Shown here piece by piece: positions 245-58,462 of a stretch of 64,000 bases of DNA. The position numbers and the translations under genes are program-made. The notes beneath the pieces were generated by a model. It did no database searches. It worked only from the letters and a program-made list of their open reading frames with translations, and was not told the origin of the DNA. Origin of the DNA: a virus (lineage: Duplodnaviria; Heunggongvirae; Uroviricota; Caudoviricetes); IMG/VR virus record IMGVR_UViG_2974549561_000001, positions 1-64,000 of that record. One strand, given 5' to 3'. The number at the start of each line of letters is the position of its first letter. Positions within the stretch are counted from its first letter, which is position 1.

Positions 245-601
245 TTAAACATGTTGTAACCCTTGAATATCAACCACAGAAAGCTCGTCTTTGTAGAAAA
301 AGGCCAGGTTGTGGCACCCCCTCGTTTGAGCGTATGAGCTGGGACCAATTTCGTTCTTCCAGACAAATGGCTTCAAATCCGTACGGCGAAGCATAAAAAC
401 GCGATTTGTTCCGCTCTGATTCCCAATGAGGCAAAAGCCTTCTTTCACCTTGATCGCCTGCAAGTTGTCGAGTTCACCGCTGGTTACACGGCTATCGAAC
501 TCCTTGCGGCTTATTAGCTCCATCTGCATCTGACGACTCCAAACAAATGCCCATTGAAGGGCGATGGCTGAATGGTACCGAAAACACGACATAAAAAACA
601 A
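245..601 (-). CDS. hypothetical protein (start uncertain)
   Basis: 118-codon minus-strand ORF, no family recognised; 5' end abuts the C1-operator-like site at 601-617. Confidence 0.3.
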   Translation of the reverse strand: MFFMSCFRYHSAIALQWAFVWSRQMQMELISRKEFDSRVTSGELDNLQAIKVKEGFCLIGNQSGTNRVFMLRRTDLKPFVWKNEIGPSSYAQTRGCHNLAFFYKDELSVVDIQGLQHV

Positions 602-617
602 TATTTATTAGAGCAAT
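601..617. promoter_or_regulatory. C1 repressor operator-like site
   Basis: ATATTTATTAGAGCAAT matches 16/17 of the reverse complement of the P1 C1 operator consensus ATTGCTCTAATAAATTT (consensus from memory). Confidence 0.5.
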
Positions 618-698
618 TTTGCAATAAGTAAACGCCACACAGACCACAAATAACCTAAGTTAAAATAACGAAAATCAGAGCAAATCATTGGTGATGAC

Positions 699-983
699 GT
701 GGCAAGTATTGCAACAAAAGACAGCATTTGTTCGGGGCACGGAGGATTCCCATCCAGGCCTCCCGTAGAGAGCGAACCACTACTTAAAGTCAACGGAGTC
801 GAAATGTTAGTTGATGGTAAGCAATATGCACAGCATACCGATGGGAACAGCACGCACGGCGGGCAAGCTATATCAACCAGGGCATGGTTTACCGTCAACG
901 GGAAAGGGATCGTATGCGTTGGTGATCCTGTTTCATGCGGCTCTACCGTTGCAGCCGGAGACGGCCTGGTTCAGGTAAGTTAG
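699..983 (+). CDS. PAAR-like small Cys/Gly-rich protein, GTG start (P1 upfC position)
   Basis: 94 aa with ICSGHGG, VNGVEMLVDGK and VNGKGIVCVGDPVSCG motifs resembling PAAR/DUF4150 spike-tip repeats. Confidence 0.45.
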   Translation: MASIATKDSICSGHGGFPSRPPVESEPLLKVNGVEMLVDGKQYAQHTDGNSTHGGQAISTRAWFTVNGKGIVCVGDPVSCGSTVAAGDGLVQVS

Positions 984-991
984 GAGATATC

Positions 992-1780
992 ATGCTGGAA
1001 AAAGACTACCAGTTATCCGCATATAAAAAATTGGCCGCCGCCGGTGGGATGAAAACACCTGGTGCCATAACATCGGCACGAAACAGTGCTAACACAGCAA
1101 AACTGCTTGCAGAAGAATTGACCGGATTAATTCTGGATACAATTGTCTATCCCGACACTATTACCAGCTATGTTTCAACGATCAGAACAACCGCAACCGG
1201 TTTAACGAATATTGGAGGGCTGGCAACTCAGCACGCGGACCTGTTGGCTGGTTATGCTGATCTGTCAATGCTCCTTCAACTCGATATTGGTTGGGATGTT
1301 TACTGTCGTGCTAATGAGCGAGAAGTTTCAGAACTGCCGATCTCTATTGCCATTGGTGATGTGACTATTACTAAATCGCTTGAGGACGCTGTAAACGCGC
1401 TTAATACATCAAGTTTAGTCGCGGCTATGGGGGAGATTAACCAGACCCTTAACACTGGCTCAGGAAGCTCGTCAGGCTCTGGTTCAGGCGGCGGCACTGC
1501 CACTCCCCCACCAGCACTAACAGAAGAGCAAATTGAATCTCTGAAAGTAGCAACTGAACAGTTTGGGGTTGTTTTCAACCAGACAACAGCACCCACAACT
1601 GCGTTACAACAGCAGTATGAACGAGCGAATGAAAGCGCCAACGTAGCCATAACTGCTTATAACCATGCTATCGGTACCGCGCTTGCGGAAGCATCAGCAA
1701 ATAAGGCCAGCACAGCCAGCGCAATCGCCGCTTTGGTTCCTGATTCTGTTCTTGATGAATTAAACAAAGCGACACAGTAA
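992..1780 (+). CDS. hypothetical protein with Gly/Ser-rich linker (P1 upfB position)
   Basis: ORF 935..1780; internal ATG at 992 preceded by TAGGAGAT; product has a GSGSSSGSGSGGG linker. Confidence 0.5.
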   Translation: MLEKDYQLSAYKKLAAAGGMKTPGAITSARNSANTAKLLAEELTGLILDTIVYPDTITSYVSTIRTTATGLTNIGGLATQHADLLAGYADLSMLLQLDIGWDVYCRANEREVSELPISIAIGDVTITKSLEDAVNALNTSSLVAAMGEINQTLNTGSGSSSGSGSGGGTATPPPALTEEQIESLKVATEQFGVVFNQTTAPTTALQQQYERANESANVAITAYNHAIGTALAEASANKASTASAIAALVPDSVLDELNKATQ

Positions 1781-1819
1781 CAAAGGACTTCATTGATAAT
1801 TTTTCTTCAGGAGGAAGAC

Positions 1820-2940: not shown

Positions 2941-2964
2941 CATTTCTGGCCTGAAATGGGATCA

Positions 2965-3072
2965 ACATTGACTATACGCGATTTTATGTTGACTGTGCAC
3001 GATTTATTGTTGACTGCACGCGATTTATTGTTGACTATACGCGACAGAAACATTGACTGTACGCGATTTTAG
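2965..3072. repeat. five direct iterons upstream of repA (incC-equivalent)
   Basis: five copies of about 19 bp with core TTGACTRTRCGCGAYWT at about 21-bp spacing; differ from the P1 iteron sequence as I recall it. Confidence 0.7.
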
Positions 3073-3146
3073 AGCCTGACTATTCACAGTTGTTGATAAC
3101 TGCAATCCAGATGACGCCAGGCCGCGCCACATATGGAGAAACCACG

Positions 3147-4031
3147 ATGCCGGAAGAAAATAAAGGCTTCCTTAGCGTTGAAGAAGTTGCTGGAAATACA
3201 GGAGAAATCCACAGCCTGAAACCCAATAACAATAGCACTATACAACCCATCGCTTTGTTGCGCTTAGGTGTGTTTGTGCCAACCTTAAAATCTACCAATG
3301 TGGCACTACGTCGCGGATCGTCAGTTACTACAAACACAACGAACGCAACCGAAGAACTATCAAGCCTCAAAATTGTTGAGCAGGAAGGCTATGAGGGAAT
3401 TGAAATTCATGGTCCACGCCTGGATATGGATACTGATTTTAAGGTGTGGGTGGGCATAACCTCCGCGTTGTTTGACTACGCACCTGATGATGACGGTATA
3501 ATCACCCTGCCATTCTCCGAGTTTGCCGATCGATGCGGCTATCCACGTAAGCGCCTTTCAAAGGCGTTCCGTAAAAGTATTGATGATTCTCTGACACGCA
3601 TTCAGCAGACAGTTGTCAAATTCCGCTTCCCGGCGGCAAAAGGTCATCTCAATAACATTAACGTCAACTTGTTGGCATATAGCAGCCTGAATACCGAGCT
3701 TGATGTTATCGAGATCCAGCCGCAGAAACAGCTATCTGAACTTTACTATGTTGACTATAAGCGAATCCTGAAGCTGAAGATGCTGGATAAACTAGGGCGC
3801 AAAGAGACGGCCAAGGTACTGTATACATTCTTTGAGGCTCTACCCGCCAACCCGGCACCTGTCAGCATTGAGCGCCTTAGAGCGAGGCTTAATCTCAAAT
3901 CATCCGTTAGCGTGCAAAATAGCGTTATCAGAAAAGCCATGAAAGATTTGGAAGCTATTGAATATCTTAAATTTTCAGAGATAAAAAACGGCAGGAAAAT
4001 CGGCTTCCAGATCCATAAGCGCAATCCATAA
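3147..4031 (+). CDS. repA: RepA plasmid replication initiator (P1 RepA family, divergent)
   Basis: flanked by iteron arrays; GPRLDMDTDFKVW block resembles P1 RepA; ATG 3147 after GGAGAAACC chosen over the longer 3090 ORF. Confidence 0.8.
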   Translation: MPEENKGFLSVEEVAGNTGEIHSLKPNNNSTIQPIALLRLGVFVPTLKSTNVALRRGSSVTTNTTNATEELSSLKIVEQEGYEGIEIHGPRLDMDTDFKVWVGITSALFDYAPDDDGIITLPFSEFADRCGYPRKRLSKAFRKSIDDSLTRIQQTVVKFRFPAAKGHLNNINVNLLAYSSLNTELDVIEIQPQKQLSELYYVDYKRILKLKMLDKLGRKETAKVLYTFFEALPANPAPVSIERLRARLNLKSSVSVQNSVIRKAMKDLEAIEYLKFSEIKNGRKIGFQIHKRNP

Positions 4032-4033
4032 TA

Positions 4034-4291
4034 TTGACTATATGCGATAGCGAGAAGTTGACTATAGGCGACATTCGTTGACGCTGGTGGATTTTTGCTG
4101 GCGTCAATATTCTGCAAGTCGCTATTGAGATGGCTTTTAGGGGCATTTCATCGCGTATAGTCAACGTTTCTCCCGACAATATCTTACATAGTCGATCTTT
4201 GGTGGAGTTAAATCGACTACAGTCAACTTTTGACTGTAGTCACATCGCGCATAGTCAACTATTCACATTAACCTTCGCGCATAGTCAACAT
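4034..4291. repeat. iteron array downstream of repA (incA-equivalent)
   Basis: about eight copies of the same TTGACTATA(C/G)GCGA core in both orientations. Confidence 0.65.
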
Positions 4292-4323
4292 TTGCGCGGT
4301 TCTCATCAAGCAGTGGTATTGAT

Positions 4324-5007
4324 ATGCAAGAAGAGAAACAACACTACCTCTACGTTCTGGTGCCAGAGAACGGAGATACTTTTAAAATCGGCATTTCATG
4401 TGGTCCATTGGCACGGTTTAAAGGGCTACAAGTGAGTCCCGATTTTGCGCTTTCACGGGTCTATCGTGGTACGCGTTTGGCAATGGTTAATCTTGAGCGG
4501 GCTTTACACGCAACCTTTTTCCCCTGGAATGCGCCGTGGGAGAAAAGCGTCGGTGGCGGGCATACTGAATGGTTTACACGAGAGTGTCTTGATAAGGTTT
4601 TGGCTCATATCGAATATCTAAATGATATGTGGGGAGGGATTCTCGAGCGCATTAAGTCGAATGATTTACTTCAGCGTCCAGTAGATGCTGCTTGCTCTTT
4701 CGAAAAAGAGCTGGATGTTACTTCTATCGTGACTTTCAAAGATGACGCAGGAATGAGGGACGTGGCTTATGTCTCCATATCTGGCTATGAACCGGACGCG
4801 ATCCGCGCTCAATGTGAATTGCTGAAAGCAATGTTTATGCTTCGGACTAAATATCCCTGGGATACAGGGCGGGTGTGCTTCCCTATGGAAGAGTTAACCG
4901 CCACCATTGATTCCCAGCTTTACCACGATAATCCAGAGAAGTTTTTTAGCCTTTTAGCCGGTAATGGGCTTAACTGTGTGTCCGGGCTGGGGCGAAGTAG
5001 AATCTAA
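4324..5007 (+). CDS. T5orf172/GIY-YIG-like domain protein
   Basis: N-terminal YLYVLV...FKIGIS and HTEWF motifs typical of the T5orf172 domain; sits between incA and parA where I recall no gene in P1. Confidence 0.5.
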   Translation: MQEEKQHYLYVLVPENGDTFKIGISCGPLARFKGLQVSPDFALSRVYRGTRLAMVNLERALHATFFPWNAPWEKSVGGGHTEWFTRECLDKVLAHIEYLNDMWGGILERIKSNDLLQRPVDAACSFEKELDVTSIVTFKDDAGMRDVAYVSISGYEPDAIRAQCELLKAMFMLRTKYPWDTGRVCFPMEELTATIDSQLYHDNPEKFFSLLAGNGLNCVSGLGRSRI

Positions 5008-5140
5008 CATGCCTCGCTCTTCGGTCCCTTCTTTTACGATCGACACGGGTACTTTGAGGCTGAACTTCCGGCGCTTACGCGTGCTATAGATACTATCGAT
5101 TTCGAACGATTATTCGCTGCTCTTAGCAAATAACACTGAT

Positions 5141-5161
5141 GCCCCTGAACGGGGCTTTTTT
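5141..5161 (+). terminator. rho-independent terminator
   Basis: GCCCC-tgaac-GGGGC hairpin followed by TTTTTT. Confidence 0.6.
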
Positions 5162-5250
5162 GTGCCCTCCTTGTAACTCTCAATCGTGCAAAATGAACCA
5201 AACATGCAGAGAATGCTATGTACAAGCATCTACGCATACATTATTATTTT

Positions 5251-12551: not shown

Positions 12552-13061
12552 ATGGGGCACAATAACACTAAGGGAAACCGTAAATTTATTAAGGGCCGCT
12601 ATACTGCCAACGCGGCCAAAGGCGAACGACTGGTATCTTCTGAATTCCAGCTCACTTTTGCAGGCCATGAAGATATCAGTGTACTGGTTCGTACGTCGCA
12701 AATCCCTGAAATGACTCGCGAGGATGTGGAGGACTATGGTCCGAATGGTGTGAAGTTCAACCAGCACGGACCAATTCGAAACTCTGGGGAAATCCAGGTC
12801 CAGTGCGTGGAGACTATCGAAGGCGATATTCTTCAGTTCATTAAGGATCGCATTGCGGCGAAGGACTATGTTGATATCACGATGGCTGCTACCCCTGAAT
12901 CCAAATCTTCCGGGGTTAACGCTGTGACAAAAGCTGCTACAACAATTGAAATGTTGGACTGCAAAATCTACAGTGATGCAATCGACTTTAGTACCGAAGA
13001 TGTGACTGCCGCTGTGCGCCCGTCACTTCGTATCGTCTACAACTGGATTGAGTGGGATTAA
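12552..13061 (+). CDS. hypothetical structural protein
   Basis: 169-aa ORF 12 bp after the previous gene; operon ends at the 13083 terminator. Confidence 0.45.
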   Translation: MGHNNTKGNRKFIKGRYTANAAKGERLVSSEFQLTFAGHEDISVLVRTSQIPEMTREDVEDYGPNGVKFNQHGPIRNSGEIQVQCVETIEGDILQFIKDRIAAKDYVDITMAATPESKSSGVNAVTKAATTIEMLDCKIYSDAIDFSTEDVTAAVRPSLRIVYNWIEWD

Positions 13062-13082
13062 GAGTCATCCCTTGTATTTTAA

Positions 13083-13106
13083 AGCTCCTTCGGGAGCTTT
13101 TTTTAT
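13083..13106 (+). terminator. rho-independent terminator
   Basis: AAAGCTCC-ttcg-GGAGCTTT hairpin plus T-run. Confidence 0.6.
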
Positions 13107-13232
13107 AACCTTTTTATATAAAAATGCATCGATAACATTGTCTGGAGTTTTATGTTAGATTATTAATGTTCTAATAAACTACAATTATTGAGGTAGATGT
13201 TTGTGCCTGTACTGTTAAAGGGGGACTCTAAA

Positions 13233-13829
13233 ATGGCTGTGATTCCAATGTCGTACTCCCCGGGTACTGTCGCTCGTCGATTTTCGATCCTGGACGGAGT
13301 TACCATCCAGGGTGTGCTTTACCAGGTTATATGGGATTCCAAAACCCCATTTGCTGCCGTAATAGAGGCTGCTCCTTCTGTTATCGATGGTGATATGCGC
13401 CATAAGGTTGTCGCTACTCTTGAACTTCAACGTCGCCCACAGCTTGAAGGCGTACTGGTGAGGAAGTTCTGGGAAGATAACGATGTTGCCCAGATTGAAG
13501 GTATCGTGGTTGATGGAATCGTCCGGGATGTCGGTTTAGCCACTTTTGTTTATGAAACCGTAGCTTCAAAAGCCGGAGTTGTTTTGCTAAGTGACAATGA
13601 GCAATACGAAGGCGGAAAGGCTCTTTGGCAGCACATCGCTCGTCGTTCTTCTGAACTAAAAGTTTTTATCCTGGACACCGATACTGCTCAGTATTACCCA
13701 TTTGATGGCGAACGTGTTTGCTATGACGGGAAAAGTATTCCTGAATCCGAGATATGGAGTGAACATCCGGATCGAAGTAAGCATGGGGTTGTTCTTGTCG
13801 CAGAATCCATAACTGGAAAGGCGGCATAG
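13233..13829 (+). CDS. hypothetical protein
   Basis: ATG 13233 after AAGGGGGA SD; preceded by AT-rich region with a weak operator-like 17-mer at 13166-13182. Confidence 0.45.
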   Translation: MAVIPMSYSPGTVARRFSILDGVTIQGVLYQVIWDSKTPFAAVIEAAPSVIDGDMRHKVVATLELQRRPQLEGVLVRKFWEDNDVAQIEGIVVDGIVRDVGLATFVYETVASKAGVVLLSDNEQYEGGKALWQHIARRSSELKVFILDTDTAQYYPFDGERVCYDGKSIPESEIWSEHPDRSKHGVVLVAESITGKAA

Positions 13830-14008
13830 CAGTAAAAAATTCCTTGCTCCTTGACAGAGGAGAGGATTAATCTAAGTACGCTAAGCATAGGTATGGCCCC
13901 GGTTAATGTTAAGCGTTGTGCGGGACGCATAATGTTTACTGGGGCTTTCTTTTATCTATTTTGGGATAATCCTGAATTCCGTAGTATTTGGCATCGGCTG
14001 CGGCTACA

Positions 14009-14239
14009 TCAGCGTTTGACTCTATTTCTATAGAAATCACCTGGAAGGGTGAATATCCACATCAGAAGAAACGTTGCAGCAAACATGATCCCTAATGGCC
14101 AGAATATGCCAAAAAAAATCATTATCCAAAAACGATCCCACCAGGCCATTTCTGCATTAGCTCGCAAAATATATCGACTTAATGCGTATATCAGTCCACC
14201 AATTAGTATATAGATGGGAATAGATACCAGGATAGTCAT
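14009..14239 (-). CDS. small hydrophobic membrane protein (doubtful)
   Basis: 76-87 codons, two to three predicted TM helices; lies directly downstream of the ail terminator with no room for its own promoter. Confidence 0.25.
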   Translation of the reverse strand: MTILVSIPIYILIGGLIYALSRYILRANAEMAWWDRFWIMIFFGIFWPLGIMFAATFLLMWIFTLPGDFYRNRVKR

Positions 14240-14280
14240 AGCGTTAGTCTCAATGAACATAACGAATATCACCAGAGCAA

Positions 14281-14310
14281 AGTATAAATCCCTCTGCGTA
14301 GGGCAGAGGG
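14281..14310 (-). terminator. rho-independent terminator of the ail-like gene
   Basis: CCCTCTGC...GCAGAGGG hairpin followed by a U-rich tract on the minus strand. Confidence 0.5.
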
Positions 14311-14319
14311 ACTAAATAG

Positions 14320-14835
14320 TTAAAATCGGTAACCGACACCAAGCATCCAAATGCTATTGCTTAGATCACCTGGTTTAGAACGTTCATACGAGAGATCAAC
14401 TGCAAACTGCGGAGATGGGTTAAATTGAAGCCCAAGTCCATAAGCAAAATCGGTTCCAAAGCCAGCATATGACTGTCCATTCAGTTTTGCTGTTGCATCC
14501 GCATGGCTTAAACCCACCAAGCCGTATGCACTCATTAATTCATTGAATCTGTATGACGGACCAAAAGTAAATGAGGCATACTCAACCTTGGCTTTGGCGG
14601 CATTCCATAGGTTTGTGTTTGACTTTTCGTAAGTGACCGAAGCTAATCCACCCCACGTAGAATCCATTTCGTAGCGATATTTAATATTCACGCCTTTTGG
14701 ATCTTTTATATCTCCGCCTTTAACCGTTGCGCTTCCTTGGGCAAAGTCTAAGGAGAGTGTGTGCTGATATGCGGAGGCAGTCCCAGCAACCCCCAAGGCA
14801 CATGCCAGAAGGGCCGTTAAAACTACTTTTTTCAT
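14320..14835 (-). CDS. Ail/Lom/PagC-family outer-membrane beta-barrel protein
   Basis: 171 aa; signal peptide MKKVVLTALLACALGVAGTASA, alternating beta-strand pattern, C-terminal LGVGYRF. Confidence 0.8.
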   Translation of the reverse strand: MKKVVLTALLACALGVAGTASAYQHTLSLDFAQGSATVKGGDIKDPKGVNIKYRYEMDSTWGGLASVTYEKSNTNLWNAAKAKVEYASFTFGPSYRFNELMSAYGLVGLSHADATAKLNGQSYAGFGTDFAYGLGLQFNPSPQFAVDLSYERSKPGDLSNSIWMLGVGYRF

Positions 14836-14930
14836 GGAAAAAGTTACCTATAAAAACGTTAAAAATAATACTGGTGACAAAATAGTGTGTATTGAGCGTT
14901 AAATACACGTAAAGATTCTATCATTCGCGA

Positions 14931-15773
14931 TCATCCGCGAAAACCAGTTGGAATATAAAATTCCTTTTCTTTTCTTGTAGATAGGACCATATCCAGAGCT
15001 TCGTTTACCGTCATGCAATGCGGCAGATTATCGAAGTTTGATATCCCGCCAATATCAGGAGAACGCTTGCTCTTCAGGTAAGCATATTTCCGGGCCGCTG
15101 CCTCAACTTTCTGCTGGAACTCATGTTTTTGAGCGCGTTTTTTGGATAACCGCAGATTGTCGGCCTTTGCTTTTGCACCAGCGATCCATGAAGTCAATTT
15201 TTTGAGTTTGGTCGTTCCGGCAGCGCCGGAAACTGATCTTTTTGTTTTTTTAACTTGTGACTTCTTATTCTTTATTGCCACGTCATCCTGACAGGGGGAG
15301 GGGGTATCATTTTGACATGGGGGTGTGGATAAAAAATTAAATAAAGTCAATGTCTTAGCGAGAACAGCTTTAACCTTGGTTGCCGCTGAAGAGATCTTTA
15401 ATTTGCTTTCAATCAGCGCATTTTTGGCTTGTTGTGCGAAGGCCAAAAAGGATGGTGTAAACCGGTACAGGTTAGCGCGACGTTCACGGTGATCGCCGAT
15501 AACAATCTCTACAGACAGGATTCCTTTGTTTACAGCTTCACGGAATGCACGAACGACGGTTGATTGGCTATAACCAGTTTCTGCCGCGATCAGGCGGTGA
15601 GGCTTGTGAATGAAGTATTCACTGGTTGTTGCCGCGAGATTTGCACATTGCGACAGGATATGCCCGGCGCTACGGGATAGACCGGAGTGTGTTACAAAGC
15701 AGGCCAATTCATAGCCAGAAAAAGTAAAATCGCTCATCGTTATACAGCTCAGGAAAGTGACTTTAGCCAGCAT
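14931..15773 (-). CDS. repL: lytic replicon initiator RepL
   Basis: 280 aa directly downstream of kilA; HTH-like ETGYSQSTVVRAFREAV; size and order match P1 kilA-repL. Confidence 0.6.
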   Translation of the reverse strand: MLAKVTFLSCITMSDFTFSGYELACFVTHSGLSRSAGHILSQCANLAATTSEYFIHKPHRLIAAETGYSQSTVVRAFREAVNKGILSVEIVIGDHRERRANLYRFTPSFLAFAQQAKNALIESKLKISSAATKVKAVLAKTLTLFNFLSTPPCQNDTPSPCQDDVAIKNKKSQVKKTKRSVSGAAGTTKLKKLTSWIAGAKAKADNLRLSKKRAQKHEFQQKVEAAARKYAYLKSKRSPDIGGISNFDNLPHCMTVNEALDMVLSTRKEKEFYIPTGFRG

Positions 15774-15802: not shown

Positions 15803-16603
15803 TTAGCGCGTTGCCGCGACAGGTACCAGCACACCAGCATCAAGCAATCGCTTCATCAGCCACTGCTGACCTTTGCCGGTTATACGAGTCGTGAAAGAAA
15901 TCCTGCTTCCGTTGCTTGTGTCGATCACGGTTTCTTTGAGGGTGAAGTACCCACGGGATATGTATTCTTGTTTGGGGACGTTCCTGCGTTCACCGGTTGC
16001 GATCAGAATTCCGTTATCACGCAACCAGGTGAAGAGATAGTTTTGGCCCAGGCCGAGCACTTTGGCATAGTTGCCGATTAGAACCCCGCTGGCGGTAGCA
16101 ACGCGTTCGGCGAATTCGACTTTAGGTGCATCCATAAGCATTTTTTGCTCCAGCCGTTGCTTTTGCTCTGCCAGGTCGGCAGCCAAACGGAGAGCTTCAG
16201 GGAGACTCTGCGGAATAGCAGGTTGTAATCTTCCGGCTCGATAGTCGATAAATGTCTGGTTTACCTTCAGCCGAAATGCGGGAGAAATCCAGCCTGCGTA
16301 CTCCACAGCGAGCAATTCATGGGCAAAAGTGCCGCCGCCACGGCCTTCGAACGAAACTATGCAATTCTGCATAGTTTCTTTTTCAAGCTCTTCGATGAGC
16401 TGTTTGGCTGACAGCGTTCTTAGCCATTGAGCTGGCGCTTTATGGGCACCGAGTCCGCTCGCTCTGTGTAGAGCATTAAGGTTGTAACGGCCAGCGCGGT
16501 CGGTCGTAATTTCAACACCACAAATAACGGGCAGAGTGGTTGAAGGATCGACATTTTGATGAAGGTTTGATATATTCATATCCGCATTGAATGTTTGTTG
16601 CAT
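15803..16603 (-). CDS. kilA: KilA
   Basis: 266 aa; C-terminal half paralogous to Ant C-terminus (PAIPQSLPEALRLAADLAEQKQRLEQ vs PSIPQTLPEALRLAAELAEQKMQLEQ). Confidence 0.7.
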   Translation of the reverse strand: MQQTFNADMNISNLHQNVDPSTTLPVICGVEITTDRAGRYNLNALHRASGLGAHKAPAQWLRTLSAKQLIEELEKETMQNCIVSFEGRGGGTFAHELLAVEYAGWISPAFRLKVNQTFIDYRAGRLQPAIPQSLPEALRLAADLAEQKQRLEQKMLMDAPKVEFAERVATASGVLIGNYAKVLGLGQNYLFTWLRDNGILIATGERRNVPKQEYISRGYFTLKETVIDTSNGSRISFTTRITGKGQQWLMKRLLDAGVLVPVAATR

Positions 16604-16673
16604 TTTTTCTCCAAATTTGCATCAACCTTCAATCACCAGCTCGAAATGGTGATTCTTTGCACTTAGAAAACGA

Positions 16674-16690
16674 AATTTATTAGAGCAAAT
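16674..16690. promoter_or_regulatory. C1 operator (Op53-equivalent) between ant and kilA
   Basis: AAATTTATTAGAGCAAA, 16/17 to reverse complement of consensus. Confidence 0.6.
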
Positions 16691-16735
16691 TTTTCTGACT
16701 CGATCCAGATCGGGTTGGTCGATCTGCTCAGAAAC

Positions 16736-16762
16736 CTGCCAGTTTGCTGGCAGGTTTTTTTC
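16736..16762 (+). terminator. rho-independent terminator on plus strand at ant 3' end
   Basis: CCTGCCAG-tttg-CTGGCAGG followed by TTTTTTT. Confidence 0.5.
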
Positions 16763-16767
16763 TTTTG

Positions 16768-37869: not shown

Positions 37870-38231
37870 CACTATCAGCTATTGAGTTAATGGATCTCAG
37901 CGATAAGTTGGATGCTCTGATGTCCAAAGCGGCTACCGCGCGTGGCATGGAGTTGCTGGATATCAGCGATGAAATTGACCAGATCATGCAACAGATGGGG
38001 TACGGTGTGTCCGGCGGCAGTAGTGGCGAGGAAAAACAACCTTCGGTACATGATGGCGTGCCAAAACTGGTTGCTGATTTCCTGGCTGATAAATTCGTCG
38101 ATCAGAGCACCGATGCATTTATCGGTACCTTGCAGGATTTGAGTCAATATGTTGGCACATACATCGACCTGGACCAGGTTAAACAGCACACGGCGGCATG
38201 GATAGCCGCCAACATTAAAGAGGCAGCGTGA
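37866..38231 (+). CDS. ddrA: DdrA
   Basis: 121 aa, ATGA overlap with darA. Confidence 0.55.
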   Translation: MTLSAIELMDLSDKLDALMSKAATARGMELLDISDEIDQIMQQMGYGVSGGSSGEEKQPSVHDGVPKLVADFLADKFVDQSTDAFIGTLQDLSQYVGTYIDLDQVKQHTAAWIAANIKEAA

Positions 38232-44560: not shown

Positions 44561-45049
44561 TCAAAACGGAATATCGTCGTCAAAGTCCATTGGAGGTTCG
44601 TTATTGGCGTTGCTCTGAGGTTTACCGCCACCACTGTATTGCTGGTGGTTTTGAGGTTGGTTTGATTGCCCCCAGCCATTTGAGGACTGTGAATCGTCAC
44701 GGCGAGCGCCGATCATTTGCATGGTGCCGCCCTGGCTGACGATAATTTCCGTCGTGTAACGTTCTACACCGGCGTCATCTGTCCACTTACGGGTTTTAAG
44801 TTTCCCTTCGATGTAGACCTGAGAACCTTTTCGTAAATACTCACTCGCAATTTCAGCAAGTTTTCCGAACAAAACGACTTTATGCCATTCTGTTTGCTCT
44901 TTCTGTTGGCCCGTTTGCTTGTCGCGCCATGATTCATTCGTTGCGATGCTGAGTCTTCCGACCGCTCCGCCATTTGGTATATACCTGATCTCCGGGTCTT
45001 GCCCCAGGGTACCAATCAGGATGACTTTGTTTACACCGCGTTGTGCCAT
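44561..45049 (-). CDS. ssb: single-stranded DNA-binding protein
   Basis: 162 aa; OB-fold N-terminus, Gly/Gln-rich tail ending acidic DFDDDIPF. Confidence 0.9.
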
Positions 45050-45068: not shown

Positions 45069-45085
45069 AAATTAATTAGAGCAAT
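45069..45085. promoter_or_regulatory. C1 operator-like site between ssb and lyz
   Basis: AAATTAATTAGAGCAAT, 16/17 to reverse complement of consensus. Confidence 0.55.
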
Positions 45086-48864: not shown

Positions 48865-51800
48865 ATGAACAAGCTATCTATGGGTGTGTTTCGCTGTTCA
48901 AGTGTCAGCGAAATATTGAAATACATTAGGACAATAACATCTCACCGAGCGCCGATTAAATACGGCGTGGAAAAGGTGGAAGGCAAAAGCTATGACCGAC
49001 TGCGCCGGGAGGCGAATCAGAAGGCGATAGATTTGCTTAATTCGCTGGTGGACGGCGCGACACTGACAGATGAACAGCGCCAGATCCTGGCCGGGTACAC
49101 TGGTGAAGGCGGCATTGGCGGGTCCGTCTCCGAATATTACACACCAAAGCCTATCGCTGAAGGTGTCTGGGAGATCATGAAGCTCTACGGCGCGGACGTA
49201 GGTAACACTCTGGAACCATCGGCGGGAACCGGCGTTTTTAATGAGACAAAACCGGTTGGTACGGTGATGACCGCGACTGAGATCAGCAGTGTTTCCGGTC
49301 GTATAAACCAGTTGTTACACCCGGAAGACAGCGTACAGATTTCCCCGTTCGAACAGCTGGCTGTAAGCACGCCTAACGATTCATTCGACCATGTTGTGGG
49401 TAACGTTCCGTTCGGCGGTCGTGATAACACACGCAACATCGATAAGCCTTACGCAGAAGAAACGGACATGGGTTCTTACTTCATGCTCCGCATGCTGGAC
49501 AAGATAAAGCCTGGCGGATTCATGTGTGTGATTGTGCCGCCGTCCATTGTTTCAGGTTCAAACATGAAGCGGTTACGCCTGCGCCTATCACGGAAAGCTG
49601 AATTTCTTGGCGCTCACCGCTTGCCTACCGGTACTTTTGACGCAAACGGGACCAGTACAGTCGTTGATGTGGTGCTGATGCGCAAACATCCGGCAGAGAT
49701 GGCTGAGAAAATCCCCTTGGTGGATGAAAGCACTCTTGAATCGGCAAATGTGCTTTGGCCAACGTTTATTTATGGCAAGTGGTTTGAAAAGGATGGCCGC
49801 CGGTTTGTTCATGGTACCCAGGAAAAGGGCTTCCAGGGGCGTATTGAGGTTCGTGCCGACGGGCAGATTGATAACCAGGCTCTTAAAGCGAAGCTGATTC
49901 ATCGTTTCGAAAGTCGTATCGACTGGTCTTTGCTCAATATGGCTGAACCGTCACCGACCGCAGACGTTGTTGATGAAGGGGAAATGCGCCTGATTAATGG
50001 CGTATGGCAAAAATATGCTGGTGGTCGCTGGATTGAATCTGATGCAGGGAAGGAGCTGAAGATTGATGTTGCCAGTTATGGCGCGGACAGCTGGGAGGCT
50101 CTTCAGCGTAACCTGACTACAACAGAAGGCCGTCTCGGTATGACATTTACCCAGATGGCAAATGTCCGCGATAAATACACCACATCAATCAGCGACGATA
50201 TGGTGCAGCTGGTGGACTGGATTAACAGCCAGCCTGAAAAATACCGTGAACGCTTGTATCGCGGGGCGATGATTGGCCGGATGTTAATTGAATATCAGGA
50301 CATGAAGGCCGCCGGGCATAGTGCTGAACAAATCGAACAGCAGCGCCTTTCTCTGGTATCCCGTTTGCAGGCAGAGATTGACCGTTTTGGTAACCCCGGT
50401 CGCGGTCCGATAGCGAAATTATCGGGGAGCGGTGCGCGCGCCTGGTTTGCTTTCCGTGGTGCAATTAAGCTGGATGGCACTATTTCTGACGAGCTGACAG
50501 GAAAACTGGTTACGCATGATTCCAGCGCCAGTTATGACTCCACCAGCTATCAGGACACCCTGCGTTATCTCTACAGTGATCTCACTCGCGATCCAATCCA
50601 GCTCGATGATTTCCGCCTTGCGTTTACCGGCGAACTGCCAGCCAGTGATGACGAGTTGCTTAATTTATTGGCCAGCACCCCTGGCATTGCGGTTTCACCG
50701 TATGGCGGGATTGTTCCGTTCGCCCGCGCCACCAGCGGCGACATTAACGAGATAGTGGCACCAAAACAGGAATTCCTTGCCACACTCCCCGACGGTCCAG
50801 TAAAGAACAACGTCCTTAATCAGCTGGCAGCGATCGAAGAGAAGCGCATCAAGACGCCAGCAGAGAATATCCGCTTTAAGCTCAATAGCCGTTGGTTCGA
50901 CCGTTCCGTCATTCTGGAATTTTTGCAGGAAAACGGCTATCCGGATCTTCGCTATGTGCAGTCAGTGCAGCTGGAAGGCGACGAAATGGTTTCTGACACC
51001 TATCACGGTGGTGATGGTCTGTTCGTCGGGCACCGATACGGTGTCGTCCAGCGCAAGGATAAAGAAACAGGCGAGATCCGCTACGAGTGGGACCGTAAAT
51101 CAGGTGAAAACGCGACCGGGTTCCCGGCACAGCTGGAAAAGTATCTCAATGGTGCGCGTATCGGTGGCAAAGATAGCGCGACGGCGAACGGCTACCGCGA
51201 GCAGATGGCACTGCTTGAGGACCAGTTCAATAAGTGGATCAAGACGCACGATCGCTACGATGAGCTGGTTGCCAAATACAACGATGTGTTCAATAGCAAT
51301 ATCCCGTATGAACACTCTGGCGATCCGCTTGGGTTGAAGGGATTAAGCGGTAAGCGCCAGCCATTTGATTACCAGAATAGCGAGGTGCGCCGACTGTCCG
51401 AAGATGGGCGCGGCATCCTGGGCTTCGGCACCGGGCTGGGTAAAACCACGACCGCGCTGGCGCTTGAGGCGTTCAACTATGAGAACGGTCGCTCCACCCG
51501 TACTGCGTATGTAGTGCCTAAATCAGTGCTGGAAAACTGGTATTACGAAGCAAAAGAATTCCTGAGTGAAGAGGCATTCAGTAACTACCTGTTCGTCGGT
51601 CTTGATGTGCTGATGGATGGCGATCAGATTCGCCAGGTGCAGGTGCTCGATGAGAACGGTAAACCTGTTCTTGGTACTGATGGCACTCCAGTTATGCGCG
51701 ATGCTCTTAAGCTGGCAGATGAAGCCACTATCACGGCGCGGATGAACGCGATCCCGCACTCAAATTACCGTGCAGTCGTGTTTACCAAAGAACAATACGC

Positions 51801-54800
51801 CCGCATTCCGCTACGTGATGACACCGTAGATGAGCATGCACAGGATATGCTTTATGACTTCGTTGCCGCCGGACGCGTAGCCAGCGCAATGGACTCCGAC
51901 TCCCACCGCAAAGAGGCCGCGCGTCGCCGGGTATTGTCGGAGTATTCAGATACCGGCACCGAAAAAGCAGAGAAGTATCCGTACTTTGAGGATATGGGCT
52001 TCGATAGTGTGATCGCTGACGAAGGTCACAACTACCGCAATAGCTATAAAAATGGTCGCGAAGCGTCACAACTGGCCTATCTGCCCACCAGCGCGGTGGC
52101 GCAATCGGCGCGAGATATGGCAATTAAAAACGCGTACCTGATGAAAAAGAATGGTGGGCGCGGGCCGGTTCTCCTGACTGCAACGCCAGTCGTTAACACC
52201 CCGATCGATGCATACAACATGCTTTCTCATGTTCTGCCGAAGGAATACTGGCAGAACATGGGGATCTACGGTCCTGATGACTTCGTTAAATTCTTCGGCA
52301 AGACCAGGCTGGAAACGGTACAGAAAATTAGCGGTGAAGTTGAAGAAAAAATGGCGCTGGTGGGCTTTGAAAACCTTGATGCGCTGCGCGGTATATTCCA
52401 TCGCTGGGTAACGCTTAAAACGGCGGAAGACGTTAAGGATACCGTGGAGATCCCGGAGCTGGACGAACACCAGCAGGATGCACCACTTACTGAAGAACAA
52501 CTGGCGGCGTATGAAGAATTGCGTCAGCAGGCGGAAGCGGCGGCCAAAGCCAACAATGGCGTAACGACCTCGGTCAATGAAGACGGCGTGATTGAGCACG
52601 AGAAAGCCCGTCCGATCTTCTCAATAATCAGGGATATGGACCGCGTATGTACTGACATGGACCTGTACTATCGCCGGATCACCTATCGTTTCCTGCCGGA
52701 GTACGCCGATGCGGTGCAGCAGCTGGCGGACAGTTTGCCTAAACAAGCCACCAGCGAAGACGACGACAGTGATGATTCAATCACGCAGCAATCGCAATAC
52801 TCCCTGATAGATAAGGGCGAGTTTATTCAGTTGCAGGTTCCGGAAGCGTTCGAGCAGGAAGTGAATAAGCGCCTGGCCAGGTTTGGCATTGACGAACAGA
52901 CCGTAACTCACCCCGTTACGCCCAAATACGCGAAGCTGATTGCCACGCTGAAGGAGTTTTTCCCGGAAGGTAAGCAAATCATCTTCACCGATGAAAAAAC
53001 GCAGCACCAGAAGCTCAAGCGCATTATCTGCAATGCTCTTAACCTTGAACCTTCAAAGGTGGGGATACTGAATGCTCAGACGGTTGCCGAGGCAGGTAAA
53101 ACCGGTAAGAAACTGAAAGCGGTTAAACCGCCGAAAGAGTTACCGGATGAACCAACAGATGCACAGATAGCGAAATACAACGAGCAAATGGCTCTGTATG
53201 ACGCCTATATCGCGCAGCAAAATGAAATGTCGCTGGGCGGGCTGGAAAAGATTGCTGCCGACTTCCAGGAGGGACGGACTCCGATCATCATCTGCAACAA
53301 AAAGGCAGAGGTGGGTATCAACCTGCATCGAGGAACGACTGACATCCATCATCTGACGTAGCCATGGACACCAGCCAGTATCGCACAGCGTAACGGTCGC
53401 GGTGCCCGAGTTGGCTCCAACCGTGCAAGCGTTCGCGTTCACTACTACTGCGGCAAGGGTTCTTTCGATGAATACCGACTGAAGACGCTGAAGCGTAAAG
53501 CAGGCTGGATCTCCGATATCCTCCGTTCAGATAAGTCAGAAATGGAGAACGCCGACGCCAACGATATGATCGAAATGCAGATGTATACCGCTAAGGATGA
53601 TGGCGAACGTCTGGCAATGATGCAGGTTCAAATGGATAAGGCGAAAGCCGCGCAACGCGCTCGCCAGAAAGAACAGGCTACTATCGACCTTCAGAACTAC
53701 ATCAAGGCGCAGCACGCAGCTGGCGAGGATGTGGAGGTACTTACCGCTGAATTAGAGCGAAGCAAAGCGGAACTTGAAAAGACCACCGCCGAGGTAGCTA
53801 AATTCAAACAGGCGGTAATGGCCAAAGCAGCTGATAACGCAGACTGGAAAGCCCGCTGGGGTAGCGTCCATCACACAGACCGTATGTTGTTAGCACAGTA
53901 TCGCGCGTCGTTGAAAAGCGCCATTCAACGCAAGGCTAATATCTCTCAAGCCATCTCCCGCTATGAGAAATTATTGAACCGTACTCAGAAGGCCGCGACG
54001 GATATCAAACGCCTGCGCCCGCTGGTGGAGGATGCAATAAATAAAGGCATTCTGGATGTAGATCCTGACCTGGTTAACCATGCGAGTGAGTTCCTTGTTA
54101 TCGGCGATCGCTCATGGCGTGTAGGCCAATACTACGATTGTGCCGGTGATATCGTTCGCATTAAGTCGCTGGACTTCGACAGCCAGCGCGCAGACGTGGA
54201 GATTATCTTTACCTTCAAAGGTACCAAATCGGGTAACTGGGATGTGAAGACGCTGGATAAACAGGTTGATGTAACTCCCGATGAAGATGCTGTTATGCAG
54301 AAAATCAGTGGCGGCGTCTCCATCGCCGGGATTAACGACATCATTTCCTGTGACGATTTCTACCGTTTCCAGCAGCGCGGCATGATCAAAATCACTGACT
54401 CATACGGCGTTCAGACTACAGAGTCAGGCTATAGCATTGATTTTGTTGGTACCTATACGGACCCACTGAAGCATGCGGTTTACCCGGATCGCCGTGACGG
54501 CGCGCTGAAGTCGTCAATTGCAAAATGGGTGCTTGGTATGATGTCGGAAGGGAATAACCGCCAGATCCGTTCGGCAGAAACATTCCTGGTTGAATTGTTT
54601 GGCTCCAATTATGGCGATGTAATCGCGTCATACGGAGATACGCTATCCCCTGAAGCAATTCAGGAGAAAATAGCGGATGCGATCGCCAGAATGCCGGAAA
54701 AAACAAGCCAGGGGGCTACTCGTAACGGGGATTCTGAACTTGAAGTCACCAATGCCATTTTCGGTACCAATGAGTTCCGGGCGTCAGATTATGAGATCAC

Positions 54801-55632
54801 CACAGCACAGTTTGGCACCATTGGCATTTACAGCAATAAAGCCGAGATCAAGCAGGCAATGGACTCAGCAAGCGCGCGCATCGCAGCAGAACGGGAAGCC
54901 AATCTGAATCATGCAGTCGCCGCGCTGACTCAATCGTGGGTAACAGCAATCAGGGAGGCCGCCACCACAGGGAAAATCACACCTGCAATAGCGGATGTCG
55001 TAAACGACGGCTCTAAATTTATGGATGCCTATCAAATGGATGCGGTGAAGTTGCCATCAGCCTATGGTCAACTCAGCTATCGCATGACCTACAACCTGGT
55101 ATCAATGTTTTCCGACCTTGCCATCCTTGGGCTGGTGGATCTTAACGAGGTTACGCCGGAATTGCTCAGCATGCGCAAGAATCATGTGGAGATATTGCAG
55201 AGAATTAACACGGTTCTTGCTGGGCGCACCGATGAAGAGAAACAGGCCGACGCTGATCGGATAAACCTAGCCCTTGGCAACATCACGGAGGAAGAGATTG
55301 CCGCCAGAAACGAGAAACAAGAAGAGTTATCATCAATACAGGGTGATGCCACCAGCATAGCTCAGTCTCTTGGTCTGAATTATCGCGTATCCACCGCCGA
55401 CCTGAAGATGATGTACGCACCAAAATTCGCCGCTGGCGAGGTATTTGGGCTTCAGGAAGCCTCAGGCATGAAAGGCGTTCTTTTCCGTGCGAAAGACGCA
55501 ATCAAGGCGAAATTCGGCGCTCGCTGGCTGCCAGCGAAGGCGAAGAACAGCGATTTCCCGGGTAACTGGTGGATTATCGAGACAAAACACAACGTGGCGG
55601 ACGTTCTGGCCGTCATCCAACAATACGCATAA
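48865..55632 (+). pseudogene. darB: darB (methyltransferase-helicase antirestriction protein) with one in-frame TAG at 53359-53361
   Basis: ORFs 48865..53361 and 53542..55632 are in the same frame; total 2255 codons equals P1 DarB length; N-terminal MTase motif VVGNVPFGG, helicase motif HHLT*PWTPASIAQRNGRGAR spans the stop. Confidence 0.8.
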
Positions 55633-55665
55633 CAGGAGCGCCCGGTTCGCCGGGCGTCGCATAAT

Positions 55666-56106
55666 ATGGCCACACTATCTGATACAATAAAACCGAATAA
55701 AACATATCTTGAGGCGGTACTCCGTACAGCGTTGTTAGGAAAGACAGAAGACGAATACGTTGATTTCTTCCTGTCAGGGCTACGCGGGCGATTACTGAAA
55801 AATCCCCGCCTGTACCGCAGCTATGGTCCATACTGGCCGGAAATTAAAAAATTATTACTGGAGCGCGGTTATGGTAATTTCGGTCGTCTCGTTGACCGTG
55901 ACGTTCGCAAAATTTACCGTTATGACCGCCCGGCGCTAACACTCATAGCCGCGACGCTCTACAGCCAGGAGCGTTTTGATAATGGTCAGATATACTCAGC
56001 CTGGCATTTACTGCCAGTGCCTGAAGAAGTTGACGACCAGGACTATGAGTTTGAGTCTTACGATTTGGAAGTTGAAGCCTTGGCACAGGCTGGAGAGAAA
56101 ACTTGA
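55666..56106 (+). CDS. ulx: Ulx-like hypothetical protein
   Basis: 146 aa after darB; synteny only. Confidence 0.45.
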   Translation: MATLSDTIKPNKTYLEAVLRTALLGKTEDEYVDFFLSGLRGRLLKNPRLYRSYGPYWPEIKKLLLERGYGNFGRLVDRDVRKIYRYDRPALTLIAATLYSQERFDNGQIYSAWHLLPVPEEVDDQDYEFESYDLEVEALAQAGEKT

Positions 56107-56351
56107 AAAAGCGATACTACACAGTAAAGCATGGGACGCTACGAGCATTACAAGAGTTTGCTGATAAGCATAACGTTGAGGTGCGCAGGGAAGGGGGAAG
56201 TAAAGCTCTGCGCATGTACCGTCCGGACGGGAAATGGCGTACGGTCGTCGATTTCAAAACTAACAGCGTTCCCCAGGGCGTCCGCGACCGGGCATTCGAA
56301 GAATGGGAGCAGATCATCATAGATAACGCATTGCTCCTGAATGCTGATTAA
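56103..56351 (+). CDS. lxc: Lxc/Bof-like C1 co-repressor modulator, TTG start
   Basis: 82 codons with GGAGAG SD; size, TTG start and position match P1 lxc as I recall. Confidence 0.5.
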   Translation: MKKRYYTVKHGTLRALQEFADKHNVEVRREGGSKALRMYRPDGKWRTVVDFKTNSVPQGVRDRAFEEWEQIIIDNALLLNAD

Positions 56352-56388
56352 ATCTTTGGCTATGCCTGGCTAAGCCAGGCATAGGAAT

Positions 56389-57519
56389 TTACACAGTATC
56401 AATGTGTCTGCTAAGGAATCTCCCGAACTGATTTGTTGACCCAAAATAGTTAGGATAAGCCTTTTTAAGAGATTTAATGTTGTTAGTGGCAAGCAGCACC
56501 GCAATTAATACTTCAGGATCCGCATCATCCTTATTAAGTTCCTGGAGGGCTTGTTCCGATTCTTTTTTCCTAAAAGGTTTCACAGAAACAAGAAACTTTC
56601 CAGTATCCTTGCCATTTTTTGTTATGGCGTTTCTCATCCTCACCAAAAAGAATCCATTATGGTTTTTGGGCAGGCTTTTCTTTAGGTTTGCATCTGATGT
56701 CAGCTTCATTGCAAATGTATATGTACTTAATTTTGAGCGAACAGATAAAGCCTCCTCCAATGTTTTAAGCTCTGTTTGATAATTTTTGATGGTTTCATCA
56801 TCAAGAATACAGGCACCTTCATCATGAGCAACTAGGCATCCAGAAAGATAAAAAAATCTTCTCCACTCAGGGTGACCTTCATTAGAAGTTTTCAGCTTAA
56901 TATTTTCAAGTGTATCTATTATCTCCAGACTTGTTGCCCAAGCATGTTGGAGTTCTGTTCTTAGTTGTACTTCGATTTTAGTTTTACTCCACGGATTGTT
57001 ACCGTTTTCTTCATCAAAACAACTATATGCAAGGTGAATGCCACTATATCCGCTTGGCTTTGGAGTTAAATAGTCATATTCCTTTAAGATTTTATGCTTG
57101 GAGCGACTTTTAACTAGTCGGTCTTTTAGTTTCTTTAGTTGTTCGATGTTTCTAACTATAGCTCTACATCCGCCAATATCCTGCATTCTAGTAAGGGCTA
57201 TTGCATTATTTGTTGCGCCGCCGTCAAGACTTGGACGCTCCAGTTTATCAATTATTGTGCTAAGTCTTTTTAGGCGTCTTGCAACAATAATCTTATTCTC
57301 TTTATCAACTTTTTTTGCAGCCCTATCAAGATGATTTTTCATTAGCATCAATGGATATAAATGAAGCTCGCGGAAATTTTGAATCATTTTAATTGCTTCT
57401 TCTCGCTCTGCGCCCTCACAACCATGTCTAATTTTTCTGGCTGCTTTTTCTATTTGAGATTTCGAATATTTAAGCTCGCATTTTTGGCTTTGATATACTT
57501 CACTGCCCATTACTAACAT
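56389..57519 (-). CDS. CapRel-like fused toxin-antitoxin (RelA/SpoT toxSAS domain plus C-terminal regulatory domain)
   Basis: DIGGCRAIV, YSGIHLAY and EVQLRTELQHAWA motifs of the RelA/SpoT synthetase fold in the N-terminal two-thirds; about 130-aa C-terminal extension; start codon ambiguous (TTG 57528, ATG 57519/57510). Confidence 0.6.
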   Translation of the reverse strand: MLVMGSEVYQSQKCELKYSKSQIEKAARKIRHGCEGAEREEAIKMIQNFRELHLYPLMLMKNHLDRAAKKVDKENKIIVARRLKRLSTIIDKLERPSLDGGATNNAIALTRMQDIGGCRAIVRNIEQLKKLKDRLVKSRSKHKILKEYDYLTPKPSGYSGIHLAYSCFDEENGNNPWSKTKIEVQLRTELQHAWATSLEIIDTLENIKLKTSNEGHPEWRRFFYLSGCLVAHDEGACILDDETIKNYQTELKTLEEALSVRSKLSTYTFAMKLTSDANLKKSLPKNHNGFFLVRMRNAITKNGKDTGKFLVSVKPFRKKESEQALQELNKDDADPEVLIAVLLATNNIKSLKKAYPNYFGSTNQFGRFLSRHIDTV

Positions 57520-57622
57520 CCAGTTCAAATGATTAATGTGTTGTTACATATAATAACAAATCAAGCTAGAAATCAATGGGTATGAAAATGAAACATACCC
57601 ATAATGTTACCTAACGTAACTA

Positions 57623-58264
57623 TTATAAATAGTTCTGTTTACCTGTTAATTCTCCTTGCGGCACTTGTTTTTGCGTTAGTGTTTGAGTTCCGCGAATTAT
57701 GTTAATCAGGGGACTTAGTAATGATGGTTCCTGATGGGCCTCAACTTCTCCAGCCATTGCCCTGATGTAGTCGGCGCTGGCAACGTTGTTGTATTCCGTC
57801 GCAAAGCAACATAGTAACGTCAGAACATGTTCTGTCGTTATTTCGCTCCAGTTGATGTTGAAAAATTCATCGCCTTTTTTATCGTGTTCGGAATCGAAGA
57901 TGCTTTGGTGAAGGATGTATTTGCCGGATTCCTTGCGCGGTAACTTGATCGCTTTCTGGCGTTCCAATTCCTTGTAAATCTGCATTGCTTCAATCAGTAC
58001 CGGTCTGCCGTTCATGAAGGGATCACGCAACCTTACACGCTGGCCAACTCGACCGGTAATAAAGCTGTTTTCCTCTTCCACCAGCACGATAAAACCCTTT
58101 TCCTCTTTTTCTCGCAATTCGCGCAGCAGCTGGAGTTCCATATCGCGGCGGCGTTCAGGGTAGCTGGTCCGCTCAGCCATTATCAGCTCATTGTTGATCC
58201 ATGCAGCAGTCATTGACGCCGGTTTGCCGACGCTCATTGAAACAACGCATATTTTCTTATCCAT
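57623..58264 (-). CDS. ref: Ref-like protein (recombination enhancement function position)
   Basis: 213 aa from ATG 58264 (185 aa from a later ATG); charged N-terminus, His-rich HQSIFDSEHD...NINWSEITTEH segment; operator-like site upstream. Confidence 0.4.
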   Translation of the reverse strand: MDKKICVVSMSVGKPASMTAAWINNELIMAERTSYPERRRDMELQLLRELREKEEKGFIVLVEEENSFITGRVGQRVRLRDPFMNGRPVLIEAMQIYKELERQKAIKLPRKESGKYILHQSIFDSEHDKKGDEFFNINWSEITTEHVLTLLCCFATEYNNVASADYIRAMAGEVEAHQEPSLLSPLINIIRGTQTLTQKQVPQGELTGKQNYL

Positions 58265-58445
58265 AGCGCCCCTACAAAAAAGAAAAGCCACCAGCGGCGG
58301 CTTAGCAATACAACTGAAGGTAGCGCCCGGTACTCAGACTGTGCCGTCCATGGAATATTTGAAAAGGGATCCATCCGTACCGGGCGTGTGATGATTCTGA
58401 CTCAAGTCACTTGTCAGTTGTCAATCATTTAAGATTAAAAATAAT

Positions 58446-58462
58446 ATATTTATTAGTGCATG
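58446..58462. promoter_or_regulatory. weak C1 operator-like site (Op2 position)
   Basis: ATATTTATTAGTGCATG, 13/17 to reverse complement of consensus. Confidence 0.35.

Follow-up and report, generated by a model that had tools for sequence, protein, structure and literature searches.

The closest described relatives of the locus studied here are the phage-plasmids P1 and P7, in which the operators of the C1 repressor, and C1 control of the operons behind them, are already known and annotated; nothing below is new on how C1 acts. The published consensus of the C1 operator is ATTGCTCTAATAAATTT, with 22 dispersed operators (PMC8546580), and the genes ssb, dmt and kilA are induced upon C1 inactivation, as measured by reverse-transcription quantitative PCR (RT-qPCR; PMC4713147). 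In the related phage-plasmid SJ46/P1-CTX, blaCTX-M-27 is carried in Tn1721 between mat and ref (PMC5241659, PMC11117986), and the terms “operator”, “repressor” and “immunity” are absent from the text of both papers. The 64,000-nucleotide stretch of DNA analysed here (positions 1 to 64,000 of the IMG/VR record IMGVR_UViG_2974549561_000001; hereafter, the window) is, judging from its sequence relationships, 64 kb of an SJ46/P1-CTX-type P1/P7-like Salmonella phage-plasmid. Five 17-nucleotide sites in the window are very probably orthologs of the known P1 operators Op68/Odmt, Op53/OrepL, Op51/Oc4, Op21/Ossb and Op2b/Omat, and the operons that they precede are very probably C1-repressed. The observations, each of which is described below, are identity in sequence and orthology in position to these operators, an excess of sites over chance, purifying selection on the operator core, and the presence of a C1 nearly identical and an Lxc co-repressor fully identical to those of P1.

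Operators were defined as the GenBank protein_bind features “phage repressor C1” in AF234172/NC_005856 (P1) and AF503408 (P7). In alignments that include the flanks, each of the five sites falls exactly on an annotated P1/P7 C1 operator (Table 1). The operator sequences are identical to their P1/P7 orthologs or differ by 1-2 nt, their promoter contexts are 97-99% identical, and the −35 and −10 elements annotated in P1 are kept at all five sites. All five sites lie on the minus strand, as do their operons, and each site reads in the direction of transcription. The sequences of Odmt, OrepL, Ossb and Omat are identical in P1 and the window. It is also evident that the likeness to P1 extends to the operator set as a whole, which has the same 17-bp asymmetric motif, the same positions, the same promoters and the same downstream genes, under the same repressor and co-repressor (99-100% identity).

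The relation of each operator to its promoter is as follows. Odmt, with 140 of 141 nt of its context identical to P1, abuts and overlaps the −35 element of Pdmt (TTGTTT, 596-601), the −10 element of which is TACCAT (572-577). The gene behind it, uhr, is the first of the uhr-hrdC-dmt operon, which continues beyond the left window end. OrepL (159/161 nt identical) overlaps the −10 element of PkilA (P53) and precedes kilA-repL. Oc4 overlaps the −35 element of P2c4 (P51a) and lies upstream of both c4 promoters and of c4-icd-ant1/2 (immI). The promoters downstream of Oc4 are identical to P1 at 113 of 115 nt, whereas its own first two bases are AC in the window, AA in P1 (AATGC...) and TC in P7 (TCTGC...), because a recombination boundary lies at the 5′ edge of Oc4. 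Within immI, the C4 RNA and its targets are recognised by the Rfam models RF01695 (70.8 bits) and RF03163 (56.2 bits). Ossb (118/121 nt identical) is located between the −10 element of P2ssb and the −35 element of P1ssb, and the ssb start follows at a distance of 19 nt. Omat (128/132 nt identical) covers the former ref stop codon and, as in P1, lies 21 nt upstream of the −35 element of Pmat/LPmat; its sequence CATGCACTAATAAATAT has 4 mismatches to the consensus.

A position-weight matrix was trained on 12 P1 operators (Op72a/b, 82, 83, 86a/b, 88, 94 and 99a/c/d/e), all of which lie outside the part of P1 that is homologous to the window, because circularity was to be avoided. Null expectations were taken from 1000 block shuffles preserving local composition, and a first-order Markov null gave similar figures. 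Five sites in the window score at least 19 bits (range 19.4-25.6), against 0.03 expected; the expected counts per window rise to 0.2 at 16 bits, 0.7 at 13.69 bits and 1.6 at 12 bits. A search with the consensus ATTGCTCTAATAAATTT at no more than 3 mismatches returned 4 matches, each on the minus strand and with 1 mismatch (0.39 expected by chance; 0 of 100 shuffles reached 4). All five strong sites, which have 1-4 mismatches to ATTGCTCTAATAAATTT, share the core TGC(T/A)CTAAT. This core, searched as TGCWCTAAT, occurs five times in the window and is confined to the five strong sites, compared with 1.19 occurrences expected, and 0 of 100 shuffles reached the observed count. It could be argued that the 17-mers share no function and that each of them arose by chance in AT-rich sequence: the consensus is itself rich in A and T, and weak matches are found about as often as chance predicts, with 1.6-1.9 expected per window at 12 bits or more and 2 observed beyond the five strong sites. 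Such an explanation has next to no probability for the set as a whole, given the excess at 19 bits, the shuffles that never reach the observed counts, the orthology of the five sites to annotated operators with conserved promoters, and a core that is more conserved than its flanks across about 80 relatives. The shuffle-expected counts fall far short of the five strong sites and agree with the two weak ones. The shuffles and the orthology thus refute chance as the origin of the strong sites, and it stands for 13165-13181 and 48919-48935 only.

A sequence-only reading of the window had proposed six 17-mers as C1 operators. The proposal holds for five of them, given their orthology and scores, and fails for the one that it placed at 13166-13182, which in register is 13165-13181 and scores at chance level. 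It had assigned 18345-18361 to the immI promoter, in agreement with Oc4/Op51 overlapping the −35 element of P2c4. It had also put ssb and the left-end genes under C1 control, and these assignments are borne out by Ossb/Op21 and by Odmt/Op68 ahead of uhr-hrdC-dmt, both matching the P1/P7 annotation and, for ssb and dmt, the RT-qPCR results (PMC4713147). The site given as 16674-16690 is a real operator, OrepL, with coordinates off by one. The site at 58446-58462 is likewise a true C1 operator but was attributed to the wrong gene, as it had been taken for that of ref and is Omat, annotated for mat, whereas Oref is outside the window.

Conservation was assessed for two of the five operators, those of ssb and uhr, among IMG/VR relatives (80 ssb loci and 79 uhr loci). 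An operator of at least 14 bits is found at −36 of ssb in 74 of the 80 loci, and an operator is found at about −88 of uhr in all 79. The other six ssb loci are without an operator (best score below 3 bits), the same number as that of the distant loci with 64-69% Ssb identity, when the two are compared by count. Alignments of 29 (ssb) and 45 (uhr) distinct upstream sequences show departures from the majority in 0.6-0.8% of cells within the 11-nt core, compared with 4-5% in the flanking non-coding DNA. The six bases at the 3′ end of Ossb are more variable (8.6% of cells). Judged by these alignments, the core is under purifying selection in the ssb and uhr operators, and the pattern fits selection acting mainly on ATTGCTCTAAT.

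The gene for the repressor is not part of the window. As c1, coi and the Op99 cluster all lie outside it, intact circuitry is not readable from the window alone. The Salmonella Indiana plasmid NZ_CP031191.1 (103,441 bp) is 100% identical to window 54000-64000 and 13050-15000, with no differences in the segments compared, and the rest of this plasmid connects the two window ends into a circle of about 103.4 kb. The NZ_CP031191.1 replicon encodes a C1 that is identical to P1 C1.100 at 282 of 283 residues. When the window was joined with the rest of NZ_CP031191.1 and scanned with the matrix (cut-off for listing, 11 bits), 19 sites scored at least 17 bits. Among these, one is unannotated and the others are orthologs of the annotated monovalent P1 operators, of which only Orlf/Op55 is missing. 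The degenerate half-site Op99b falls below 11 bits both in the replicon and in P1, and the same scan on P1 recovered all annotated operators apart from Op99b.

A working C1 circuit is supported by the C1, Lxc and operators of the replicon and by the report that P1-CTX from Salmonella J46 is mitomycin C-inducible and plaque-forming (PMC11117986). Several disruptions would suit another explanation, in which the operators are relics of a defective plasmid, the C1 circuit is dead and the sites have been kept by recent common descent: ref is cut by Tn1721, mat is frameshifted relative to P1, Op55 is missing and Op(pro) degenerate. However, C1 and Lxc are essentially identical to those of P1, the operator set is whole apart from Op55, and the induction and plaque formation concern the same phage type. 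Furthermore, the C4 RNA and both its targets co-vary compensatorily, which points to ongoing selection on the immunity system, and we regard a dead circuit as very improbable. The claim of the sequence-only reading that P1-type C1 circuitry is intact is not one that the window by itself can carry, and stands only by reference to NZ_CP031191.1. Nor is the regulon wholly of P1 type, as Orlf/Op55 is lost and the Op(pro) ortholog is changed from C5 to T. The sequence-only reading had also suggested a matrix scan of the whole replicon, in which similar matches might have turned up at random frequency; in the scan described above, the strong matches in the window do not.

One site in the whole-replicon scan is unannotated. 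It is operator-like, lies between cre and c8 outside the window (replicon 68228-68244 in the joined numbering, ATTGCTCTAATTCTTTG, 18.8 bits) and has a counterpart in P1 at 1485-1501 (ATTGCTATAATTATTTG, 16.2 bits). By its sequence, it may represent an additional C1 site, placed upstream of c8.

The steps by which the C1 circuit operates are established P1 biology, including the work of Schuster and Sternberg. Following P1, C1 encoded elsewhere on the replicon would bind the asymmetric 17-bp sites on or beside sigma-70 promoters and would occlude these adjacent promoters. In the lysogen, uhr-hrdC-dmt, kilA-repL (lytic replication), c4-icd-ant (immI), ssb and mat would be silenced, and Lxc, encoded in the window, would strengthen C1 binding via a ternary complex. 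Ant1/2 and Coi would inactivate C1, and the C4 RNA would block icd/ant translation. Upon loss of C1 activity, dmt, kilA-repL, ssb, mat and the rest of the regulon would be derepressed. Several points weigh against this account of the five sites. Actual C1 binding and repression at them would follow by analogy with P1 biology. The presence of c1 depends on the apparent equivalence of the window and NZ_CP031191.1. In close relatives the flanks are highly conserved too, and the contrast between core and flanks, although clear, is drawn on modest divergence. Omat, lying 21 nt upstream of the −35 element and not over the promoter, has a less obvious mode of repression. Finally, 18 nt separate Omat from Tn1721, the tnpA gene of which is oriented toward Omat/mat, and this could alter mat regulation; read-through from tnpA into mat is conceivable. 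Overall, the standard P1 immunity wiring is confirmed in this replicon, which aids annotation of the many P1-like phage-plasmids spreading extended-spectrum beta-lactamase genes and shows which operons are expected to be silent in the lysogen and which cargo is without C1 control (Ail/Lom, CapRel and the Tn1721 load). Mildly new are the missing Op55, the position of Omat abutting Tn1721, and the unfitness of 13165-13181 for annotation as an operator.

The site AATGTTCTAATAAACTA at 13165-13181 lies in the swapped-in cargo block at 13103-14995. Even the weakest of the annotated monovalent P1 operators, Op55 (16.1 bits), scores higher than this site, and 0.7 matches of its score are expected per window (probability of one or more, about 0.5). 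At position 5 the site has T, whereas C is found there in 19 of the 20 annotated P1 operators, the exception being the degenerate half-site Op99b. The TGCWCTAAT core is absent, and no consensus promoter was found around the site in a scan of 13040-13260. The site could nevertheless be a genuine weak C1 operator on the cargo open reading frame (ORF) at 13233-13829, serving as a functional stand-in for the lost Op55. It is oriented as the downstream ORF, 52-68 nt before its ATG, it overlaps a possible −10 element (TACAAT, 13180-13185; TATAAT in diverged homologs), and annotated P1 operators as weak as 16 bits exist, for example Op55. It is also invariant in 15 distinct P1-like upstream sequences. 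This invariance is uninformative, because almost the entire 90-nt leader is nearly invariant, and in diverged homologs of the ORF (85-89% amino acid identity, other contexts) the −10-like TATAAT is kept and the operator-like part is absent. With its low score, the T at position 5, the absent core and the want of a consensus promoter also counting against it, a genuine operator here appears unlikely. On its sequence, 13165-13181 is most likely a chance match, not to be annotated as an operator.

The second weak match, ATTGTCCTAATGTATTT at 48919-48935, is the ortholog of the “hypothetical Op(pro)” of P7. In P1 and P7, Op(pro) reads ATTGCCCTAATGTATTT and scores 18.1 bits, against 12.5 bits in the window. 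The change of C5 to T is the sole substitution in 177 aligned nt, and it leaves the site without the core. It is most likely non-functional, a chance or decayed match by the look of its sequence. The predicted Op(lydC) of P7 (7 bits) has its counterpart at window 34117-34134, where TTCTGCTCACTATCGTTA is not operator-like. As for a replacement of Op55, no matrix match of 5 bits or more exists downstream of repL (14836-14930). A by-eye check of Omat for a second inverted half-site, as in Op72ab, showed neighbouring sequence unlike the consensus.

The block at 13103-14995 replaces the P1 segment with the repL 3′ end, Orlf/Op55, rlfA, rlfB and pmgF, and Orlf/Op55 is absent because this repL-distal module was swapped. 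Between repL and the Ail/Lom gene that now follows it, no C1 operator was found. It is conceivable, if quite unlikely, that the C1 regulon of SJ46-type phage-plasmids has been rewired relative to P1, with Op55 lost together with rlfA/rlfB, Op(pro) inactivated by the C5-to-T change and the cargo gene captured by a new weak operator at 13165-13181. Were this true, the cargo gene at 13233-13829 would be on only at induction. The 13103-14995 block is common in P1-like plasmids of Salmonella, E. coli and E. albertii.

Table 1. Positions in the window of operators, operator-like matches, genes and blocks without a P1 or P7 counterpart; scores are from the matrix scan.
Feature	Position	Strand	Score (bits)	Remarks
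Odmt (former Op68), ATTGCTCTAATAAATAT	601-617	minus	25.6	P1 65145-65161; P7 Op(dam)
OrepL (former Op53), TTTGCTCTAATAAATTT	16673-16689	minus	22.7	P1 49810-49826; P7 Op(rep)
Oc4 (former Op51), ACTGCTCTAATAAATTT	18345-18361	minus	22.8	Ortholog of P1 48140-48156 and P7 50853-50869
Ossb (former Op21), ATTGCTCTAATTAATTT	45069-45085	minus	25.3	P1 21015-21031; P7 Op(ssb)
Omat (former Op2b), CATGCACTAATAAATAT	58446-58462	minus	19.4	Base-for-base P1 2628-2644 and P7 7584-7600, Op(mat)
ATTGCTCTAATAAATTT matches, up to 3 mismatches	601-617, 16673-16689, 18345-18361, 45069-45085	minus
Operator-like AATGTTCTAATAAACTA	13165-13181	plus	13.7	4 mismatches; upstream of cargo ORF 13233-13829
Ortholog of P7 “hypothetical Op(pro)”, ATTGTCCTAATGTATTT	48919-48935	minus	12.5	Inside darB 5′ coding sequence, upstream of prt/pro
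uhr	245-529	minus		Intact 94-aa ORF; aligns to P1 uhr, start 65233
repL	14931-15773	minus		ORF; P1/P7 homology; lytic replication operon with kilA
kilA	15803-16603	minus		ORF; P1/P7 homology
immI operon	16768-18284	minus		Rfam, ORFs; 98.9% identical to P7
ant1/ant2	16768-17814	minus		ORF
icd	17811-18032	minus		ORF
C4 antisense RNA	18079-18164	minus		Within immI
a1/b1 targets	18232-18284	minus		Within immI
ssb	44561-45049	minus		ORF, 162 aa; aligned to P1 ssb
lxc (bof), C1 co-repressor	56103-56351	plus		Translation 100% identical to P1 Lxc
mat	57623-58374	minus		Long ORF 57623-58291
Cargo ORF, 198 aa	13233-13829	plus		No Pfam or PADLOC match
Membrane ORF, 87 aa	14009-14272	minus		Small
Ail/Lom outer-membrane protein	14320-14835	minus		Directly downstream of repL
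RelA/SpoT-domain gene	56389-57528	minus		At P1/P7 type III res-mod position
Tn1721-family (annotated TnAs1-family) transposon	58481-64000			Inserted in ref 3′ end
TnpA, 988 aa	58513-61479	minus		ORF
Resolvase, 186 aa	61483-62043	minus		ORF
Block matching neither P1 nor P7	2950-5203
Block matching neither P1 nor P7	13103-14995
Block matching neither P1 nor P7	about 29887-33881
Block matching neither P1 nor P7	38227-39563
Block matching neither P1 nor P7	42865-44360
Block matching neither P1 nor P7	56356-57668
Block matching neither P1 nor P7	58481-64000

The transposon at the right end of the window stands next to Omat. P1 homology ends at P1 2609, which corresponds to window 58481, and the Tn1721 inverted repeat begins at the same position. 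The transposon separates Omat from ref, Oref and c1; Oref/Op2a lies beyond it, outside the window, at replicon 67751-67767 in the joined numbering. P7 likewise has a Tn3-family transposon beside Op(mat), inserted in the ref 3′ end no more than about 10 bp from the spot that Tn1721 occupies in the window. The right part of 58481-64000 contains a truncated PAS/MCP gene and an outer-membrane receptor fragment (62957-63982). On the other side of Omat, one nucleotide of a G run in mat is missing when compared with P1, and as a result the first 35 P1 codons are not in frame. The long mat ORF starts at 58291, and an internal ATG (MDKK...) follows just after.

The immunity region itself is close to that of P7. 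Megablast matched window 16000-19500 to P7 at 98.9% identity over its full length and to P1 at 94.9% over two thirds of it, on the minus strand in both cases, and the 98.9% identity to P7 holds in particular for immI-kilA. P7 nevertheless has another C4 b′ specificity element. The b′ loop reads CGTAAGT in the window, CACTAAC in P1 and CACAATC in P7, and the b1 and b2 mRNA targets both carry the compensating ACTTACG, whereas the a element is of P7 type (window 18232-18284 and about 17990-18060, minus strand). The loop and target sequences suggest a third immI (heteroimmunity) specificity.

Compared over the whole window, P1 and P7 are collinear with it in reverse orientation, interrupted by the blocks listed in Table 1. 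The gene at 56389-57528 encodes a product of which residues 7-379 match the full length of PDB 7ZTB/9ERV (E = 1.6e-250), and it is labelled PDC-S33 by PADLOC. Because of this structure match and the SJ46 background, the gene is assigned to CapRel(SJ46), a fused toxin-antitoxin defence protein. SJ46/P1-CTX and NZ_CP031191.1 share with the window both the position of Tn1721 and this CapRel gene matching PDB 7ZTB. A 1.3-kb insertion between the ddrA and ddrB homologs (38227-39563) is absent in P1 and P7. The replication region at 2950-5203 has a megablast-level match to neither P1 nor P7, and PLSDB types the NZ_CP031191.1 plasmid as IncHI1B.

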